NCBI RefSeq assembly: GCF_003334355.1
Contig: NZ_QOWP01000002.1
Length of the DNA stretch: 64,000 nucleotides
Origin: Escherichia coli
GTDB taxonomy: Bacteria; Pseudomonadota; Gammaproteobacteria; Enterobacterales; Enterobacteriaceae
Strand: one strand, 5' to 3'
Under the pieces are notes generated by a model. The model was not told the origin of the DNA. It ran no database searches and saw only the letters and a list, made by a program, of their open reading frames with translations. The translations under genes were made by a program, and so were the position numbers. Shown here one piece after another: positions 467 through 27,808 of this stretch; the first letter of the stretch is position 1, and each line of letters begins with the position of its first letter.

Positions 467-489
467 AGCCGGGTCACTCCGGCTTTTTG
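467..489. terminator. hairpin AGCCGGGTCACTCCGGCT + T-run, between convergent genes
   Basis: GCCGG/CCGGC stem followed by TTTTT directly after stop at 460; overlaps stop of minus-strand gene. Confidence 0.4.
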
Positions 490-839
490 ATATGTCGCTC
501 GCAGAACTCAACAAGCCTGCTCATTAAGTAGCAGTAAGTCTCGTTGGCTCTTCCTGGTTCAACATCAACACCTACCCTTGAGCAGATATCGAATGCCATG
601 TGAGCGCACTCATGGGCAATAGTAGATAGTTTGCCATTGAACACGCCTATCACATGCAAAACACCATTCTCGCTACTCATTGTATGAGACGCTCCGTTGG
701 CGTCCGAGTCATGCACGTCAACGCCAAGTTTTTGATGCAGGCGTTGCCATTCTGGAAAGTCTCTACAAAACACAATTGTACCGCTCTCAAAGAGCGGAAC
801 GAGCATCTTTGGTACGTTTCCAATGTTAACTTTTTTCAT
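474..839 (-). CDS. HExxH-motif protein, putative small zinc metallopeptidase-like
   Basis: 121 aa ORF with protein-like composition and a single HECAH motif ([10 protein letters not shown]); weak SD (AGGA). Confidence 0.5.
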
Positions 840-869
840 GGTATCCTGCGTAAAACTAAGGAGGTTGGT

Positions 870-1364
870 GTGTCTGATTCTATGAGTTACGCTGTGCTAG
901 TTGCCGCAACTCTATTTCTGGGGATAGGGTTGCAGATTGCGTGGTTCTTTTTTTCTAGTTTTATTAAACGTAAAAGAATTGAATCAAGGATATCTGAGAT
1001 TTCTATTGCTATAGGGAAAAATGCTGAAAATCCAGAGAATGAGGCCTGCGCACTGAATTACCTTAAAGAAAAGTTTTCCCCTGAAAAATTTGAAAACAGA
1101 ATTACTGATGCTCTTGGATTGGTAATATCAGTAATTCATATGCCACTAAGTTTGCTGATAACAGTGTGGTACTTCGCCATGATCGCCGGAAGAATATTTG
1201 GTTTCATGAATATAGAGCCTGTAGTTCTTTGGGTTCCAATGATACTGCAATTGTTGTTAAGCGTTGCTATCTTTATTTTTTCTGTTTTTATAAAAATTGT
1301 CTTCGGAAGATACCCCGGAGAAGCGAAGGGATTTAATAAAGAATTCATAAAAACTATAAAATAA
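870..1364 (+). CDS. AT-rich 3-TM membrane protein (candidate superinfection-exclusion/cargo gene at sieA position)
   Basis: GTG 870 preceded by AAGGAGG (858-864); three hydrophobic helices; ~33% GC versus ~50% flanks; upstream in-frame extension to 654 looks non-coding. Confidence 0.5.
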
Positions 1365-1386: not shown

Positions 1387-3261
1387 CTACTGCCGGGTAG
1401 CTTCGTTAACTAAGAGCGGGCGCACGGCAGTAGCCGCCTGATTTAGCGCTCTTTCATAAGCTGGCGTTCCAGCTTTAGTGTTTGCCAGACGTAAGAGCGC
1501 ATTCCTTGCTGCTTTGGATTCATACAAGCGCATCATTGCACCGAAACCAGCCTCAAGCCCCATTGATACGCCAAGAGTCGTAGTTGCGCCAATCGTCCTT
1601 ATCCTGTTGGCTTGCGATTGCCCCGTCTGAGTTACTACATTTGCGGTGTCTGATCTTGCTGTTTGCTGTAGAACTTCATGAAGAGCATCAAGTTCTTTCA
1701 TGTGCTTTCCAGAAAAAATAGCGTTGTAAATTTCACCGCCTGACTGAGATTTCAGCTTATTAACTTCCGTGATGAACTTGGCTGGAGAGTCACCGGCCTT
1801 TTCCGCTATTTTGCTGACGTAAGCTGCACGCATAGCATCTTTCCCTTTATCATCCAATGCGCTCCAGATTCGTTTCACGTCAGATGGTTTTCTGCTTAAT
1901 ACAACAGTATTTATAAGTTCAGGACTGGCTTCACTGCTTGCCTTGTTGAGCTTGTTAGCAATGTTTTTATTAAGCACCTTATTATAAACGTTTGCATAAT
2001 CGGAATTTGCTTTAAGGTATTTTGCTGCGTCTGAAGCACCGAGGTTTTTAGCAACTGCGTTACGAAGGTCTTTTGACATTGCATTCTCTACCATATTGGT
2101 AGCTGCTTTTGCCTGGTTGGGGAAGACCATGGCATCTCCCTGAACATTAGATCTAAATGCTGTTCTGTGCTGGCGCAAGAGATCAAACGTAACATCCAAA
2201 TCAGTTGCAGGGTTTGCTAATTCTTCACGTAGGTTACGCAAGGATGTAAGCAGGCTTTGATTGGCAGAAGTCCCAAGCCGTTCCTGTCTTGCGATCGCTG
2301 TATTCAGAGCATTCATGGTATTTGTGGTATCAACTGCGGCATTACCCATTTTATTGGTGACGTCATTGATAACAGCGCCAGCGGCATCCTTCCGTCCCCT
2401 TAACGTGGTGGTCAGAGATTTCACCACATCATCAGGGTTGTACTCACCAAAACGGTCAAAATAATTGCTTACCAGCTTACTACGCGTTGCATATTGCTCC
2501 GCTCGCTTTGAGCCTGTCCCGAGCAAAGCCCCCTCAGCATCCTGAGTAAGTCCGCGAGTGAAAGCATTTTTCGGCGGGATAACATCAGATGTCATTGGTG
2601 TCACGCCCATCGATTCTGATGTGGCAATTTTCTTTGCCACTTCTGGCGCAATATCACCTTTTATAGCCGTTATTCCACGCCCTATTCCCTTTGCTGCTGC
2701 GGAAAGAACCCCCTGAGCGGCAAGGTTAACTCCGGCATTTTTAGTTGCATTTTGTGCGAAATCGCCTTTCTGATTTGCGGCCTCTGCCAGTGATCCAATA
2801 GCCATGCTTCCTGCCGTTCCAACTCCTGGAACTAAATACCCGCCAATTGTTTCACCAGCTTGAGCGTAGGGGTCTGTCGGTCGATCGACTGGACGATAAA
2901 CATCATCCAAAACCTTGGGGCCACCAAGCCCCTGGCTGATTGCATTAATCAGGCTTGCGCCGCCCTGTAATACGTCGAATGGTATGTTTACCAGACCACG
3001 ACCAGCCTGCTCTGCAATTTGCCCTGCACTTTGACCACCTGTGAGCCAATCACCAGCTTGTTGCATCAATGATGGTTCTTCTTTCTGCTGCTGAGGCGGA
3101 GGGTATGCTGCATAAAACTGATCTCTTGCTTCAGCCCATTTGTCACCAGCCTTAGGGGCAACAACCTCATCAAAATATTGCGCTTGAGCCTGTGCTTTCT
3201 GTTCTTCAGTTAACGCCTGATACTGTGGAGAGGCGATAACATCTTTCCATGCTTTAGCCAT
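1387..3261 (-). CDS. ejection/internal virion protein, P22 gp16-like
   Basis: 624 aa, Ala/Gly/Gln-rich, last gene of late operon; size and position match P22 gp16 (609 aa). Confidence 0.7.
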
Positions 3262-4655
3262 TAATCACCCCATAGTGAAGAAAAGTTACTGCTGGCTGCT
3301 GGCTGTGATACCTGTGTAGGTTGAGATTGCTGCCGCTGAGATTTACCAACATTAACGTTATATTGTTGGTTGTAATTGTCGGTATATTGCTGAATGTCGC
3401 GCATTGATTGTTGCAGTGCTTCAGGGCTTGAGAAATCAACCTGTGGCATACCTTGAAAATACATCTTTGCTTCTGCAACGGTGTTGATACCGGATGCCCC
3501 CATGTCTCTGGCTGCTGCAATGCCCTGATTCTGCATCTTTCCTTGGATTCGCTGTGCAGCGTTGTATAGTTTCCTCTGATCACCACCAGATGCACGGCTA
3601 CGAATATCTGCACCAAGAGCAGGAGAACCTGAAGAGCCTGTAATGCCAGTCATGAAGCCAAGATCGTCAATTGATGCACCAGAAATTGCATCAAGATCTT
3701 TCTTCATTGCGTAATTCTGCGCGCTTGCTGCCGATGTAGCCGGAGCGGCAATAGAGCCAGCAGGGACGCGAACCATATTCCCCTCGTTGTCGATACCTTC
3801 GTAGAACGCATTAGCCCCAGCGCCGTGAAGCTTCCCGCCTACCGTTACAGTTCTGCCATCTGATAACTGAACTGTACGCTCATCATTCCCAGCGATTCCT
3901 CTTATTGACGCTCGCTTCATTGCCAAATCCTGACCTCGTCGCGCAGTAGAAGCAGATAAGTCCTGACCGCGCATCGTGATGTTCTGGCCTCGTGCTGTTA
4001 GTGCTTCTCCTGCCTGATTGCTGCGGATTGTCTCTGCCAGTCTTCCTCGGTCAATCTCACGACCAGCCATCTTGTCCTGAACATTGAAGTAATCAATTGG
4101 ACCAAGAGCAGCCATTCCAAGGTGATCAACAAACTCACCAAATCCTGAAGGGTTCTGCTGATACATCTGAGCAACGTTATTAGGGTCAACACCGACGCGA
4201 GTCAGTTCCTTGGCGTTGTTTTGCAGCCATGATTGCATTGCTTCTGGAGACGAGGCCGCAAGGCGTGCGCCAGCCGCTAAGGTGCCGATAGAATTGCGCT
4301 GGTCTTCGTCTGCCCACTTCATACCAGACTGAATCTTCTCTAATTGACCAGGATATTTGGCCATCAGATCTCGAACCTGCTGTCGATCACCTGATTGAAT
4401 AGCAGAAGCATAATCCTTTCTGAATGCCGCCTCTTGCTTCTGCTGATCATATTGCTGCAATCCTTGCATTGTGCTTGTTATTCCCTGCAGAGCCTGCAGA
4501 CCGATATTGTTGCGACCAAGCCTGGCATCCTCATTATTCTGACGAATGTAAGCCAGTGTCTCATTTACATCACTCGCCTTTGGCGCATTCTCATTTTGCG
4601 CACCAATTCCAGCCAGAAAACCACCGGAGTTGATGCTCTGTTGCCAAGTTGCCAC
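3261..4655 (-). CDS. ejection protein, P22 gp20-like
   Basis: 464 aa; synteny and size match P22 gp20 (471 aa). Confidence 0.7.
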
Positions 4656-4667
4656 TGTTCACCTCCA

Positions 4668-5330
4668 TCAGTAAAGAAGAGAGCCGAGAGCACCTACACC
4701 TGCACCAATTGCCGCTCCCCATGGACCACCAACACTGCCACCAATAGCAGCACCGGAACCTATTCCACCAATCAATTTCTGACCTGTAGATGGTCGGTTG
4801 GCATTTGCTGCGACTGCTGCTGCCTGCTGTTGATACAACTGACTGGCATTGTTTGCATAGGTCTGCCCGGCGTTTGCCTGACCTGTAAGAGCACCAAGGC
4901 CGATATTTGCCAGATTGTTGTAGTTGTTCATCTGACCTGACAGCCAGTTTTGACCGAGTGTAGGTGCGATTGCTGCTAACTGGTTTCCTGTTGCTGTAGA
5001 GCCTAATCCACCCGTTGCCTCTGCTGCTGCCAGACTCTGATAGCGCGCCTGCCCTGCAAGGTCTTTATACTGCTGGGAGTTGTAATACTGGTTAAGCGCC
5101 TGACCTTGCCCCTGAAGAGAGGAAAGATTTTGCAACTGTGATACGTACTGCTGAGCGAGTGGCGTGAACGGTGCAAGGTTCTGCATGTTCGTTTGCCACA
5201 TTTCACGCTGCAATTCGATGCCCTTTTCAGTTGCGCGTGCCTGGGCTTTAGAGCCGGAGTCGCTGCCGCCTTTCATATACCCATTCATGGGAAGCAATTT
5301 ATTCTTGAAGCTTTCGCTAAGTACTAACAT
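4668..5330 (-). CDS. ejection protein, P22 gp7-like
   Basis: 220 aa, Gly/Ala/Gln-rich; synteny and size match P22 gp7 (229 aa). Confidence 0.65.
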   Translation of the reverse strand: MLVLSESFKNKLLPMNGYMKGGSDSGSKAQARATEKGIELQREMWQTNMQNLAPFTPLAQQYVSQLQNLSSLQGQGQALNQYYNSQQYKDLAGQARYQSLAAAEATGGLGSTATGNQLAAIAPTLGQNWLSGQMNNYNNLANIGLGALTGQANAGQTYANNASQLYQQQAAAVAANANRPSTGQKLIGGIGSGAAIGGSVGGPWGAAIGAGVGALGSLLY

Positions 5331-5784
5331 TTATTAGCTCCTCATATTTCGAACGAGGTAATTGATAGAGGGTGATTCCTACCGGTTTTCCGTTACTCAT
5401 GTACGCATCATCAAGGTGACCAACACGGGTAGCGCCAAGCAAACGGATAATTGCCCGTCCGTATTTGGTGGTGTCAGGAACCATGGTGATGCTGTTAAGG
5501 AATGGTGAGTTTTCGAGAAGCCATTTGCAGAATAATCGATGCCCTTGCAGTGCATATTCTCCACGGAATCCGGGGTCATACACCGCATGGCATTCAACAA
5601 CGCTATGCCAGAAGTTACGCACTTCATGAACTCCAGCCAGCACTAATCCTTCGTAGATGCCGAGATATACCGCATCAGGCTTGATGTAGTATTTGTCTCC
5701 ACTGTCTACGATATTTCCCGTGTTTGCCGGGTTGTTGAGGAATTCTGCAAGCTTCACCGGGTTATCGATGAGCTTTATGTGCAT
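5317..5784 (-). CDS. virion-associated protein, P22 gp14 position
   Basis: 155 aa ORF between needle and gp7-like genes; assignment by synteny only. Confidence 0.45.
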   Translation of the reverse strand: MHIKLIDNPVKLAEFLNNPANTGNIVDSGDKYYIKPDAVYLGIYEGLVLAGVHEVRNFWHSVVECHAVYDPGFRGEYALQGHRLFCKWLLENSPFLNSITMVPDTTKYGRAIIRLLGATRVGHLDDAYMSNGKPVGITLYQLPRSKYEELINVST

Positions 5785-6485
5785 TAGTTGATTAATCCAT
5801 GTGTTCGTAAGGCGTCTTCCAGTGCTTTGATGCGCTGCCGCGCCTGCTGTAAACCTGTAGCCATAGCGGAAACTTCAGACTGCGTATACGTGGTACTGAC
5901 CGTGTATGCCTGGTTAGCGTTGAATGCGCCGAGAAGTGCCGTTCCGGTTGCTGCTGTCCATCCTGTCTGACGAGCACCGATAACCTTGGTGCCGCCGACT
6001 GAATAGGATGTTGTTACGTTGAGGGGGGATGCCAGCGATTGTGTTGCTGTGGCTGTTTTCGATACGTAATCGTCCTGCAATGCAGAAATATTTCCTTCAG
6101 CCTCCGTCACTCTACCATCGAGAGCACTGACATCAGCCTGCAAGGTGACTATTTCACCTTCAGCCGTGGTTAGTCTGACATCCAGCGACGCGATTGCATT
6201 GGTATTTGCAGTAATACGGATTTCATGGTCGTCTACGTCGATGCGGAGCTGACGAATTCTTTCTTCGTGATCGACCAGAATCACATCCTGCTCATCGTTC
6301 CTGACCTGTGCATGATAAGCGCCCTGTCCGGCCTCGTTGGCCTTGTTAGCCACGTTACCAACATCAGCGCCCTGTGCGATAACGTACAGCAGATATGACT
6401 GCGAGAAGATATTGCGTGGAAGGATTGATGTATCGAGCCGTGTAGCTTGGATGATTACCGGCACATTGAGATTCGAATCAGCCAT
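5784..6485 (-). CDS. tail needle protein, P22 gp26 homolog
   Basis: N-terminus [25 protein letters not shown]… and C-terminus …RTHGLIN closely match P22 gp26; coiled-coil heptads. Confidence 0.85.
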
Positions 6486-7023
6486 TAACATGCCTCCACG
6501 ATTTACCAGACTGGATATTGTGAATCACCGTCTGACTGACACAGTATTTTTTAGCAAGCTCTCTTTGATTAACTCCCTTTGATTTCTTTATTTCTATTAC
6601 TTGCTCATATGAGAGCTTTGAAATTGGATTATTTTCTCCTTTTAAAGCCGGAAACTTCACCCTGCCTTGAGATGAGCAATGCTTCATATTCTCCTTTTGA
6701 GTACACCACTCTAAATTAGAAGCATTATTATTTTTTCGGTTGTTATCTATGTGATTTATGAACGGCTTGCCTTCTGGATTGGGGACGAAAGCAAGAGCGA
6801 CAAGCCTATGCACAAGCCATTTTACTTTAACTCCATCAACACTAAGTGGCAAATATAGATAACCTTTATTATTCTCGTGTTGTTTTAGCCACCGACCCTT
6901 TCTGAGTTGCGTGCTGCCATGCGCAGCCTTAACAACACGTGAGTGAGAATATACTCGCCCATCCTCTGTTACGGCATATAAACCTTCATATCCAGGAATA
7001 TCTTTTGCGTTTTCACTCAACAT
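6478..7023 (-). CDS. free-standing HNH homing endonuclease (NUMOD4 + HNH_3 + C-terminal HTH)
   Basis: [17 protein letters not shown] (NUMOD4), HRLVALAF…[17 protein letters not shown] (HNH); AT-rich; inserted between gp10 and gp26 genes, 8-bp overlap with gp26 start. Confidence 0.8.
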
Positions 7024-7044
7024 ATCTACTCCTTTAGTTTCGAT

Positions 7045-8463
7045 TTATGTTACACGAATAGAAAGGCCTGATAATGTAACAGGACCTTTTGCAATAACTC
7101 TGAATTTAAATCCAATGAGGCGTCTAACTCGACCAACTTTTCGCCATAAAACGCGATTGTCATATACAAATGGTTTTTGTAATACGACCATTTGCTCACG
7201 ACCGTAATTAATTCCATCTGTAGTTGCTGATATAAATATTCTATCTATTCTATCACACACGCCGCCAGATGTTTCTAATTCAAGGTCATTTATTAAAGCG
7301 TTATCTGCCTTTATTAGAGGGGAATATAAAATATGCTCTTGTTGTTTTTCGTATTGTGAAGATATATCGAACTGCAATTTCCCGGTCACGGATTCCAGCT
7401 TATCGCCGCACGTTATCTGATTGCCTTCGTAAATGAAGTCGATAGCGCGGTACACATCGTCATACAAGCCAGTTTTCAACACACACCATTGCGGACCATT
7501 GGCGCTTGAAGATGCGTCGTACACGAGAACATGGCGCGCAAGATGGATAATCAGCAACTCATGCGCATCAAATCGTAGAGACTCCATCACGCCATCAGCC
7601 AGTTCATCAGCAGTGTAGGAACGGAGGATTTTCTCAATGCTCGCGCTGGCGATTGGTGATACCTGACCGGAGCCGATGATGTACACAGACGGCGCACCTG
7701 TTGCCGGATTGCTGATGAACGCATACGAATCAGCAAACGGCGTTTTGCAGTAAGTTCCGGCGATGCCTTTTTGCACCATCAGTGATGGCTGTGCGACATA
7801 CAAAGCAGCACCAACGGTGGTTGCGCCAGTCAGGGAGAAATATTCAATCGTCGATGAACCAAAGCAGACGATGAAGTCTCGCCATGTGCCGATACCGATG
7901 ATGCCGTCCGGCTGCGACTCGGCACGATATTGTGCGCTGTAACGGTCAGGATGCGATTCGTCTTCAAGGTCAGTGATAAACCATGAATCAGTGCCGTCTT
8001 TTGACCACGCATAACGCCCACGCAAGCGCGTAATGTCACGAACCGAACCTAACTCATACTGAGTGAATCCGCTATCTGCAGGCCAGTTTGAGACGGTTTT
8101 AACCGTGCCATCATAGCGATACTCGACCAGCTGACCGTTAACACCTACCGCCTGTGATGTCCGACCATGCGCCATTGATACGCGACCGCTTCCGGCAACA
8201 TCACCGACTTCACTTTCTCCTTTGTACAGCTTGCCACCACACACGCGATAAACAGCACCCTGCGCCATGTTGTACTCGACGCCGCGAGATACACCGTTCA
8301 CATCAGAACGTTTGGCAATGCCCGGGAATGAGCGAAGATATCCGCTGCTGTTCAGGATTTCTTTGGGTGTGGCCAGCATATTCACTGGCAGATAGTCGAT
8401 ATAGTCGGCGTTTCGAAAGTCTTTGCCGACACCTTTCATAAGCGGAAGTTGCTGAATCGGCAT
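7045..8463 (-). CDS. tail hub protein, P22 gp10-like
   Basis: 472 aa, identical length to P22 gp10; position after gp4-like gene. Confidence 0.7.
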   Translation of the reverse strand: MPIQQLPLMKGVGKDFRNADYIDYLPVNMLATPKEILNSSGYLRSFPGIAKRSDVNGVSRGVEYNMAQGAVYRVCGGKLYKGESEVGDVAGSGRVSMAHGRTSQAVGVNGQLVEYRYDGTVKTVSNWPADSGFTQYELGSVRDITRLRGRYAWSKDGTDSWFITDLEDESHPDRYSAQYRAESQPDGIIGIGTWRDFIVCFGSSTIEYFSLTGATTVGAALYVAQPSLMVQKGIAGTYCKTPFADSYAFISNPATGAPSVYIIGSGQVSPIASASIEKILRSYTADELADGVMESLRFDAHELLIIHLARHVLVYDASSSANGPQWCVLKTGLYDDVYRAIDFIYEGNQITCGDKLESVTGKLQFDISSQYEKQQEHILYSPLIKADNALINDLELETSGGVCDRIDRIFISATTDGINYGREQMVVLQKPFVYDNRVLWRKVGRVRRLIGFKFRVIAKGPVTLSGLSIRVT

Positions 8464-8472
8464 TTATTCACC

Positions 8473-8934
8473 TCACGTACTCGGATCATCTTTCTCGATG
8501 TAAAACCGATTCCACGTAAACGCGCTTTTGTTACCACTACCGCGAGGCATGTCATTTCGCCGCTCAAGTGGTGGTATTTTGGTTAAAGCGATGCAAATTG
8601 TCTGGTATGCACTGTCAGCAGCGGTAAGGAGAGCGTCTGACGGCTGAATGACGTTATCCATGCACACTTGCACAGCGAGTTTCAAGGCGACGCCATCATT
8701 TGCCCATGCAGGGATACCTGAATCATCGTCAGGTAACGGCATGATGCCGTTTTCTGTATCAGCAAACTGATATCCAAGCTCGATACCTTTAGCCTGCCAT
8801 GCTGCCATCATGTCTTCGAGGTCATTAATGGCATCTTCAATTGCCTGAGGGTCAGCATCTGTCAACGTGGCATTGGAATACAGCCCGGCTTTTCGTAAAG
8901 CCTTAAGAACGAGATCACCCTTCGTTTTCGCCAT
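8473..8934 (-). CDS. head completion/tail adaptor, P22 gp4-like
   Basis: 153 aa directly downstream of coat gene; synteny. Confidence 0.6.
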   Translation of the reverse strand: MAKTKGDLVLKALRKAGLYSNATLTDADPQAIEDAINDLEDMMAAWQAKGIELGYQFADTENGIMPLPDDDSGIPAWANDGVALKLAVQVCMDNVIQPSDALLTAADSAYQTICIALTKIPPLERRNDMPRGSGNKSAFTWNRFYIEKDDPST

Positions 8935-26014: not shown

Positions 26015-26245
26015 TTACATAACAAACTGCTGTTTACCGATACGGCGAATCTGTGCTGCTGAGTACTTGCCGCCTGATGCCTTGGCGATCTTATCCGCAT
26101 ATTCGGTTTCACCAGTGAACTCGGTACGCGGCAGAGAACCACGCTCAAGCCACTTATAGATGGCTTTTGGCGTAAGTCCACAAACATCAGCCACAACAGA
26201 AACTCGAACGGATTTGATAACTTCTCCAAACGTAACTTCGTTCAT
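26015..26245 (-). CDS. cro: Cro-like HTH repressor
   Basis: 76 aa HTH protein divergent from cI across operator repeats. Confidence 0.6.
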   Translation of the reverse strand: MNEVTFGEVIKSVRVSVVADVCGLTPKAIYKWLERGSLPRTEFTGETEYADKIAKASGGKYSAAQIRRIGKQQFVM

Positions 26246-26261
26246 GCTTCTCTCCTGTGGT

Positions 26262-26331
26262 GAACTTATGGTTCATATTATGACGGAACTGATAGTACAG
26301 TCAATACCTAATATAGTTGAACTTATGGTTC
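26262..26331. promoter_or_regulatory. cI/cro operator region: two copies of palindrome TGAACTTATGGTTCA
   Basis: Identical 15-mers at 26262-26276 and 26317-26331 between divergent cro and cI; second overlaps cI start codon. Confidence 0.55.
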
Positions 26332-27032
26332 AACAGAAAGAGCGTGAAACTTTCTCGCAGAGGCTTGCGCTGGCCTGTGATAAAGCGGGATTACCTTTGC
26401 ATGGTAGGCAGGCTGATTTAGCTGTCAGGCTTAAGGTCACACCAAAAGCCATTAGTAAATGGTTCAACGGGGAGTCAATACCAAGAAAAGACAAGATGGA
26501 ATCTCTGGCTTCGGTGCTGGGAACTACTGCTGCATATCTGCATGGCTATGCTGATTATGACGGTATCACGGTAAATCATCTATCAAGATCAAATGATTCT
26601 TATCGTGTTGATGTATTGGATGTTCAGGCGAGCGCCGGGCCAGGAACCATGGTTTCCAATGAATTTATAGAAAAGATAAGAGCAATTGAATATACGCCCG
26701 AGCAGGCAAGAATTTTATTTAATGGAAGGCCACAGGAAAGCGTAAAAGTCATCACGGTTCGCGGTGACAGCATGGAGGGAACCATCAATCCGGGAGATGA
26801 GATCTTTGTTGATGTATCCATAACCTATTTTGATGGCGATGGCATTTATGTGTTTGTATACGGGAAAACAATGCACGTTAAGCGCCTGCAAATGCAAAAG
26901 AACAGGCTTGCCGTCATCTCTGACAATGCCGCTTATGATCGATGGTACATAGAAGAAGGTGAAGAAGAGCAACTTCACATTCTAGCCAAAGTCCTCATTA
27001 GGCAGTCAATCGATTACAAGCGATTCGGATAA
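26325..27032 (+). CDS. cI: CI prophage repressor (HTH + S24 LexA-like autopeptidase)
   Basis: N-terminal HTH, C-terminal S24 fold (GDSMEGTINPGDEIFVD …KRL). Confidence 0.85.
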   Translation: MVQQKERETFSQRLALACDKAGLPLHGRQADLAVRLKVTPKAISKWFNGESIPRKDKMESLASVLGTTAAYLHGYADYDGITVNHLSRSNDSYRVDVLDVQASAGPGTMVSNEFIEKIRAIEYTPEQARILFNGRPQESVKVITVRGDSMEGTINPGDEIFVDVSITYFDGDGIYVFVYGKTMHVKRLQMQKNRLAVISDNAAYDRWYIEEGEEEQLHILAKVLIRQSIDYKRFG

Positions 27033-27274: not shown

Positions 27275-27808
27275 GTGGATCTTACTCAAGTGTCTGTAAG
27301 GGAGATTCTTCATTACAATCCTGTGAGTGGTGACTTTTATTGGAAGCCGAGAGCAAAGCATTTGTTTGCGGATAACAGAGCTGCCTTGACGTGGAACAAG
27401 AAGTATCCAGGTAAAAAGGCTGGCTCACCTGACAACAAGGGTTATCTGAGAATAAATATTGGAGGTAAAAAATTTAAGTCTCACAGACTTGCATGGCTTT
27501 ACGTGCATGGCTACTGGCCTGATGTGATTGATCACATAAACGGCGTTAAGGATGACAACAGAATCTCCAATTTAAGAAGCGTTTCTTTCAAAGAGAATAT
27601 GAAAAACATGCCTTTAAAATCATCTTCATCAACTGGAGTTACAGGTGTTGAAGCAAGAAAAGAGCATGGGTTTTATGTTGCATCGATAACTGTGGATGGA
27701 AAACGAAAATACCTAGGCTCATTCAAACTTTTAGATGATGCCAAACAAGCAAGGAAAGAAGCCAATGCACTATATGGCTTTCATGAAAATCATGGACGGA
27801 GCCAGTAA
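27275..27808 (+). CDS. HNH endonuclease with AP2 DNA-binding domain
   Basis: HRLAWLYVHGYWPDVIDHINGVKDDNRISNLR (HNH_3) followed by AP2-like TGVTGV…GFYVASITVDGKRKYLGSF. Confidence 0.8.
   Translation: MDLTQVSVREILHYNPVSGDFYWKPRAKHLFADNRAALTWNKKYPGKKAGSPDNKGYLRINIGGKKFKSHRLAWLYVHGYWPDVIDHINGVKDDNRISNLRSVSFKENMKNMPLKSSSSTGVTGVEARKEHGFYVASITVDGKRKYLGSFKLLDDAKQARKEANALYGFHENHGRSQ

Follow-up and report, generated by a model that had tools for sequence, protein, structure and literature searches.

A probable homing endonuclease gene of the I-HmuI type, with a recoded end of gene 10, between tail genes 10 and 26 of a P22-like phage of Escherichia coli

P22-like phages are a workhorse of structural virology. 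What, then, is an HNH endonuclease gene doing between genes 10 and 26 in the tail region of one of them? The case considered here lies in Escherichia coli, on contig NZ_QOWP01000002.1 of assembly GCF_003334355.1, of which a window of 64,000 nucleotides (the whole stretch that was analysed) was studied. A preliminary description, made from the letters of this window, had seen an AT-rich gene that interrupts the P22 late order and spreads as homing endonucleases do between related phages. The answer proposed here, to which we give a probability of about 0.7, is that this is a free-standing homing endonuclease gene of the I-HmuI type, that it forms part of a promoter-less cassette in the late operon, and that the cassette moves by intronless homing with co-conversion of its flank. 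The genes and parts of genes concerned are the following, in the order in which they are read:

8473..8934, minus strand: gene 4 homologue
7045..8463, minus strand: gene 10 homologue (tail hub, head closure Hc3), 472 amino acids, PHROG 578 at 8e-216
7045..7363, minus strand: AT-rich "type II" 3' tract of gene 10, gene nucleotides ~1101-1419, the last ~106 codons
7024..7044, minus strand: spacer of 21 nucleotides from the gene 10 stop to the HNH start, reading ATCGAAACTAAAGGAGTAGAT in gene orientation
6478..7023, minus strand: free-standing HNH endonuclease gene, ATG start, 181 amino acids, from the open reading frame (ORF) call
6478..6497, minus strand: 3' end of the HNH gene, codons W-R-H-V-N-G-stop, read from the sequence
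5784..6485, minus strand: gene 26 homologue (tail needle, P22 type; longest ORF from 6491), PHROG 1219 at 6e-126
5317..5784, minus strand: gene 14 homologue

The late genes thus keep the P22 order on the minus strand over 5317..8934, with the HNH ORF as an extra between genes 10 and 26. This is the break in the order 4, 10, 26 that had been reported, and the AT-richness noted at the same time is real, the HNH ORF having 40% GC against ~51% in its flanks. Both flanking ORFs are complete. The HNH gene is not part of a group I intron but a separate cistron, which follows the stop of gene 10 and precedes gene 26; it has its own ribosome-binding site, with a Shine-Dalgarno sequence AAGGAG at 7029..7034 inside the spacer. 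These features make it a free-standing relative of the intron-encoded "I-" enzymes rather than one of them. At its other end, the HNH gene contains the signals of the needle gene: the Shine-Dalgarno sequence GGAGG at 6493..6497 and the ATG at 6483..6485. The HNH stop and the needle start overlap by 8 nucleotides (ATGGCTGA, 6478..6485). This agrees with the 8-bp overlap given in the preliminary description, on the understanding that the needle gene starts at the ATG at 6485, with which the MAD... N-terminus of every relative aligns; if the longest ORF, drawn mechanically from 6491, were taken instead, the overlap would be 14 nucleotides. In a consensus scan of 6478..7363, no minus-strand terminator was found, and promoter-like sites fell below the shuffle expectation. 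The HNH gene is therefore handled here as a promoter-less cistron.

The ORF at 6478..7023 had been described as encoding a NUMOD4-HNH-HTH protein, and its limits are exact. Pfam finds NUMOD4 at residues 7-60 (E 5.6e-11), HNH_3 (PF13392) at residues 70-113 (E 1.7e-10) and, weakly, HTH_3 at residues 144-174 (E 0.008). The protein also matches PHROG 59 "HNH endonuclease" (3e-58), and an identical protein, WP_021514124.1, is annotated in RefSeq as "NUMOD4 domain-containing protein". Its sole significant solved relative is I-HmuI (PDB 1U3E), with a sequence E-value of 2.3e-12 over residues 7-152. I-HmuI is an intron-encoded HNH homing endonuclease from the DNA polymerase intron of Bacillus phage SPO1, and it has a sibling, I-HmuII. 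The AlphaFold2 model of the window protein (pLDDT 91) has three C-terminal helices where a helix-turn-helix is expected. Foldseek aligns this model with I-HmuI over its full length (182 columns, E 1e-8, TM 0.52-0.55). In the region of the motif, strands are predicted at 88-91 and 104-107 and a helix at 109-118, with pLDDT 95-98. The two enzymes would share an N-terminal beta-sheet NUMOD4, the beta-beta-alpha-metal motif of HNH and a C-terminal helix-turn-helix, as well as the catalytic His and Asn: His91 aligns with the general base His75 of I-HmuI, and Asn112 with the metal ligand Asn96. They differ in that identity is 27% in the Foldseek structural alignment and in that the window protein has Asn in place of Asp74; moreover, the window gene is a cistron between two genes and not part of a group I intron. 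Residues N90, H91, N112 and H115 are invariant in all 77 aligned homologues, so that the loss of catalytic residues that would have spoken against a homing endonuclease is not seen, and by the standards of its family the aligned HNH motif is intact. Judged from its sequence and its predicted fold, which agree, the protein is a NUMOD4, HNH_3 and helix-turn-helix endonuclease of the I-HmuI type. PADLOC matches it with its "homing endonuclease" models only (8e-27) and NCBIfam gives no match; a component of a defence system was rejected on these grounds.

Where the insertion begins and ends is given by comparison with alleles that lack it. In the insert-free Sf6, HK620, Dewey, E. coli 980-2 and BTP1, genes 10 and 26 overlap or adjoin, stop to start (...GAGTAATGGC...). 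The overlap, seen also in P22 and in the E. coli P22-like prophages that lack the gene, has the form TAATG, the TAA of the one sharing bases with the ATG of the other. Aligning the gp10-gp26 junction with insert-free relatives, as had been proposed, thus defines the site as the gene 10 stop/gene 26 start. On the needle side, the homology of insert-bearing to insert-free alleles restarts exactly at the needle ATG (TAATGGCTGATTCG). On the gene 10 side, nucleotides 1-1080 of the gene are ~95% identical to insert-free alleles (99% in amino acids), as against ~55% (67% in amino acids) for the type II tract. The GC content of this tract is 30-38% versus ~51% upstream in the gene, a composition like that of the HNH gene. 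By these alignments the gene 10 homologue is chimeric, with a resident 5' part of 1100 nucleotides and a 3' end brought by the cassette, and the mobile unit can be put at about 880 nucleotides (6486..7363), made up of a gene 10 tail of ~320 nucleotides, the spacer and the HNH gene. The earlier idea of a mobile sub-element is thus upheld, but it has to be widened from the ORF alone to a block of ~880 nucleotides that includes a replaced gene 10 end.

The left boundary of the cassette varies. It lies at gene 10 nucleotide ~1101 in the window and in several other loci, at ~1125 in AH19B041, and at ~1131 in A39, SCU-124 and SMN013SH2, a pattern that would be expected from independent or secondary recombination end-points. 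According to a conservation scan, no sequence near the site is more conserved in insert-free alleles than the gene 10 tail, and their most conserved 24-mer, inside the replaced tract, spans -184..-161 as counted from the stop of gene 10; this is only suggestive of that tail as a putative target of the enzyme. A donor of the type II tail was also looked for. A tblastn search of 50,697 phage records found only phage HZ41 above 70% amino acid identity, and the species-representative genomes gave insert-free type I tails only. A Providencia prophage has a uniformly low GC, and its tail is just 71% identical. In Citrobacter sp. Res13-Sevr-PEB04-36 (L044, ~2980..3312), the last 330 nucleotides of gene 10 have 43% GC versus 57% upstream; the tail there is type I-like, there is no HNH gene, and gene 10 may show here one more mosaic boundary in the same position.

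How common is the cassette? The conserved 5' part of a P22-like gene 10 is present in 919 of 5426 complete E. coli genomes, and the type II tail with its spacer in 56 of these 919. All 56 carry an HNH gene, in one of three variants: variant A, which is that of the window (at least 99% nucleotide identity; WP_021514124.1; 16 genomes), variant B (WP_000947776.1; 36 genomes) and variant C (WP_042048397.1; 4 genomes). Phage HZ41 carries variant A at 99.8%. Presence or absence is polymorphic at one precise site, that of the gene 10 stop and gene 26 start. The HNH gene is missing from P22, Sf6, HK620, Dewey and BTP1 and from ~94% of E. coli P22-like prophages, an occupancy of ~6%, and it is thus far from being a fixture of all relatives, which would have contradicted the idea of a mobile gene. 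The three variants are 44-56% identical as proteins, with the motif kept in all and the C-terminus WRHVNG identical. Variants A and B have flanks that are 93-100% identical in nucleotides and cores that are 30-65% identical; as aligned, the difference between them is a swap of the core inside a common frame, reminiscent of I-HmuI and I-HmuII. In E. coli M160133 (NZ_CP022164.1, 1923410..1924752, hit H78), the variant A copy is interrupted by IS1A, the sole disruption noticed (1 of the 16 variant A genes and 1 of the 56 E. coli copies). In E. coli ETEC1748 (L009, 2097..4541), the variant B gene and gene 10 are intact within a decayed prophage remnant in which the annotation marks the gene 4 homologue, the needle gene and the terminase small subunit as truncated pseudogenes.

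Relatives of the HNH protein, sought among 5.8 billion proteins, form a graded series of 99, 85, 82, 75, 68 (Providencia rettgeri) and 61% identity, those from 85 to 61% coming from P. rettgeri, an NCBI genome assembly (L024) and Logan sequencing-run assemblies. In each relative examined, the HNH gene has gene 10 on one side and the needle gene on the other, within a P22-like cluster. The 21-nucleotide spacer recurs in L020, L021, L022 and L024, and the Providencia prophage (L018) has a longer, divergent one of 27 nucleotides. The C-terminal 112 amino acids of gene 10 in the HNH-bearing relatives form one group, with 70-98% mutual identity and 61-68% identity to insert-free tails, and this type II grouping holds whatever the divergence of the N-terminal part of the protein (50-99% amino acid identity). 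Apart from that of the uniformly low-GC Providencia prophage, these tails are AT-rich compared with their own gene 10 5' parts. A protein search with the 103-amino-acid tail, which returned partial proteins only and has no census value, added two more type II tails (one from Salmonella enterica, one from an ENA contig), after which a NUMOD4-HNH gene again comes. On the other side, all 25 insert-free loci from species-representative genomes lack the HNH gene and have a type I tail abutting the needle ATG. These loci, from 10 genera, belong to Citrobacter, Escherichia, Kluyvera, Xenorhabdus, Arsenophonus, Morganella, Erwinia, Rahnella and Pantoea, and include contigs binned to a Collinsella metagenome-assembled genome. 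No exception to the linkage between tail type and HNH gene was met among the loci examined.

Does the cassette have a history of its own? Identities of cassette and flanks were measured among six variant A loci, with the following results:

HNH gene: 98.9-100% identity
spacer: 100% identity
gene 10 tail: 97.5-100% identity
gene 10, nucleotides 1-1080: 93.5-95.6% identity
gene 26, first 180 nucleotides: 78-98% identity
rest of the needle gene: unrelated alleles

Since the identity of the cassette is above that of its flanks, the cassette is younger than the backgrounds in which it sits, and such conservation would be expected of a horizontally spreading element. The earlier suggestion of homing-like spread among related phages agrees with this, given the patchy presence of the gene, a cassette at 97.5-100% against flanks at 78-96%, and the different needle alleles beside it. 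The linked tail with its variable end-points looks like a co-conversion pattern, which is compatible with homing and not exclusive to it. As for selection, all six variable sites in the HNH gene among the variant A loci are synonymous, and a comparison of variants A, B and C gives saturation at synonymous sites (pS 0.64-0.86) with a pN of 0.32-0.41. The synonymous-only variation, and a pN well under a saturated pS, indicate that the HNH protein is under purifying selection.

A mechanism can be proposed from these observations. The enzyme would be made late, in a mixed infection or in the infection of a lysogen under induction, and would nick or cut the insert-free allele of a related co-infecting phage. 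The candidate target is the conserved 3' third of gene 10, or a sequence across the gene 10/gene 26 junction. The break would be repaired from the HNH-bearing genome. Because the tail is only ~55% identical in nucleotides to resident alleles, repair would resolve only upstream of nucleotide ~1100 and at the needle ATG, and the co-converted tract would be the whole block of ~880 nucleotides. Recoding of the tail has probably also abolished the site that the enzyme attacks, so that the carrier would be immune to its own enzyme. As the last HNH codons supply the ribosome-binding site and start of the needle gene, the late operon still works with the insertion in place, and simple deletion of the cassette would be costly. 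The preliminary description had further suggested that recombination at the needle and tail genes is biased by the element, and for the needle gene this is plausible.

Several points weigh against this proposal. Cleavage activity, target site and biased inheritance are putative, for this protein as for its close relatives. Asn90 occupies the position of the I-HmuI metal ligand Asp74; as it is invariant across the homologue family, the substitution is read from the alignment as a family trait rather than as decay. Occupancy in E. coli is low, at about 6%. The three variants are ancient, so that long-term residence with vertical descent plays a part. The late operon is silent in prophages, and any drive is therefore confined to lytic growth. 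Finally, since no crossover resolves inside a tract that is 55% identical, ordinary recombination also produces the linkage of tail and HNH gene, and this linkage is by itself no proof of endonuclease-driven conversion.

This last point leads to the idea that the gene is a passive passenger, either a former homing endonuclease or one with its target elsewhere, in a block that moves by ordinary homologous recombination. The high mosaicism of P22-like late regions, in which the needle alleles beside one and the same cassette differ completely, suits this idea, as do the presence of the cassette in just 56 of 919 genomes and a linkage that follows from the missing homology within the tract. A useless nuclease gene should decay under neutral hitch-hiking, however, and this one does not: the variable sites of variant A are synonymous in 6 of 6 cases, the catalytic residues are invariant in 77 homologues, three anciently diverged variants keep intact ORFs at the same site, and one IS1 insertion is the only disruption among the 56 E. 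coli copies. We therefore hold the passenger explanation to be improbable. The same purifying selection, acting across deep divergence at one locus, can be turned into an argument for domestication, the protein being either a weapon against co-infecting relatives that does not necessarily copy itself or a factor that binds DNA or regulates by means of its helix-turn-helix. Its gene belongs to the late operon, with virion genes as co-expressed neighbours and a strong ribosome-binding site, and marker exclusion is documented for I-HmuI-type enzymes of the Bacillus HMU phages and for T4 endonucleases (PMC2988022). Yet ~94% of E. coli P22-like prophages, as well as P22, Sf6 and HK620, do without the gene, and the only linked partner is the recoded gene 10 tail. 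Moreover, competition by cleavage and donor repair is homing itself, which means that this alternative overlaps with the reading preferred here; as a separate explanation it has, in our view, a slim chance.

An accessory role in packaging deserves mention because an HNH protein is encoded here within the morphogenetic module. HNH proteins of the HK97 gp74 class assist terminase in cutting cos DNA. Against such a role, the HNH gene is no neighbour of the terminase and portal genes, which are found 5-10 kb upstream of it, beyond gene 10, gene 4 and the capsid and scaffold genes; the architecture is the sequence-specific one of I-HmuI, with NUMOD4 and HTH, and not that of a small stand-alone HNH; packaging in P22-like phages is headful, from pac; and most relatives have no such gene. 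Position, architecture and distribution exclude a packaging-type HNH, to which we assign a practically negligible probability.

Homing by a late-operon cassette has well-known counterparts. Free-standing homing endonucleases have been best studied in T4-like lytic phages. In T4, they are encoded by promoter-less cassettes between conserved genes, their flanks undergo co-conversion, and the endonuclease genes embed the expression signals of the downstream gene (PMC2988022). The window cassette resembles those of the HNH enzymes MobA and MobE and of the seg genes: it is intergenic and promoter-less, it is present or absent among relatives, and flanking sequence travels with it. Like them too, the HNH gene embeds the expression signals of a downstream gene, here that of the essential needle, an arrangement by which deletion is discouraged. 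The differences are that the host is a temperate P22-like podovirus, that the site lies in tail-machine genes and not in genes of nucleotide metabolism or replication, and that the linked flank is a strongly recoded segment of 106 codons in place of the scattered polymorphisms of T4. The I-HmuI/I-HmuII pair offers another parallel, in that diverged enzymes occupy the same genomic site in related phages, as variants A, B and C do here.

Is the gene 10/gene 26 junction the only site of this lineage? A sister NUMOD4-HNH gene stands at the gene 4/gene 10 junction, gp41 in Salmonella phage UPF_BP1 and WP_178943738.1 in E. coli K56-43-un:

L001 (Salmonella phage UPF_BP1), 3519..4103: sister HNH gene
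L010 (E. coli K56-43-un), 4388..5113: sister HNH gene

The first 47 residues of the sister protein are nearly identical to those of the window protein, with an overall identity of 54-57%, and its cassette has the same spacer and ribosome-binding site as the window's (ATCGAAAC..AAGGAGTAGATATG). The sister gene is inserted within the 5' end of gene 10, and 31 codons of the former gene 10 start are left upstream of it. It has a C-terminal extension, its 3' end being overlapped out of frame by the recoded start of gene 10. In the sister cassette the recoded gene 10 segment is thus downstream of the HNH gene, whereas it is upstream in the window cassette. A nuclease accompanied by a recoded piece of gene 10 at two sites indicates that the lineage has moved between sites. 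E. coli K56-43-un carries both the sister gene and, at the gene 10/gene 26 site, variant B.

These observations allow a wider and more tentative proposal, which we consider possible though doubtful. The cassette may be a selfish module in two parts, one being the nuclease and the other a recoded, "immune" version of what it attacks, namely the C-terminal domain of the tail-hub protein gp10. Several anciently diverged cores (A, B, C and further ones) would be rivals for one site as I-HmuI and I-HmuII are, and the sister lineage would have moved to the other end of gene 10 by the same trick. If this were true, homing endonucleases would be a main driver of allele exchange in the gp10/needle part of the P22-like tail machine across genera of Enterobacterales, and gp10 would have two C-terminal forms owing to nuclease pressure and not to structural need.

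Free-standing HNH homing endonuclease genes of phages are already well known, and RefSeq has entries for the protein, generically named. In the full-text literature we found no paper on an HNH gene between P22-like genes 10 and 26, although an earlier mention in Casjens and Thuman-Commike (2011) is possible. What the locus adds is a clearly delimited cassette with a recoded structural-gene flank and several enzyme variants at one site. It provides a natural example of a homing endonuclease at a sharply defined site in the tail-machine genes of temperate P22-like phages, with three diverged enzymes sharing that site and a sister enzyme at a second one in the same gene. One of the mosaic boundaries within gene 10 is accounted for by the cassette, which may also be the reason why needle alleles reshuffle nearby. 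Our understanding of homing is not changed by it; it is extended to a new setting. As cultured phages exist with the gene (HZ41) and without it (Sf6, HK620), the system is experimentally tractable, and the enzymes could be sources of new sequence-specific nickases.

When 24 kb of the window were compared with complete E. coli genomes, none matched at more than 80% coverage. Elsewhere in the window, where no tRNA gene was found, three other ORFs call for comment:

27275..27808, plus strand: second free-standing HNH gene, 177 amino acids, GTG start
654..1364, plus strand: ORF for a hydrophobic protein of 236 amino acids, overlapping the opposite-strand ORF 474..839
474..839, minus strand: ORF of 121 amino acids with an HExxH-like motif, overlapping the opposite-strand ORF 654..1364

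The second HNH gene lies just downstream of a CI/LexA-like repressor ORF (26160..27032). Its product has an HNH_3-like motif, after which comes an AP2-like DNA-binding domain. It matches the PADLOC homing-endonuclease model at 1e-8 and is 42% identical to an HNH protein encoded beside the tailspike gene of the A39 prophage of E. coli. The two overlapping ORFs lie in a low-GC patch (~36%) at 474..1364, beyond the ejection-protein gene on its stop-codon side, which looks like accessory cargo.

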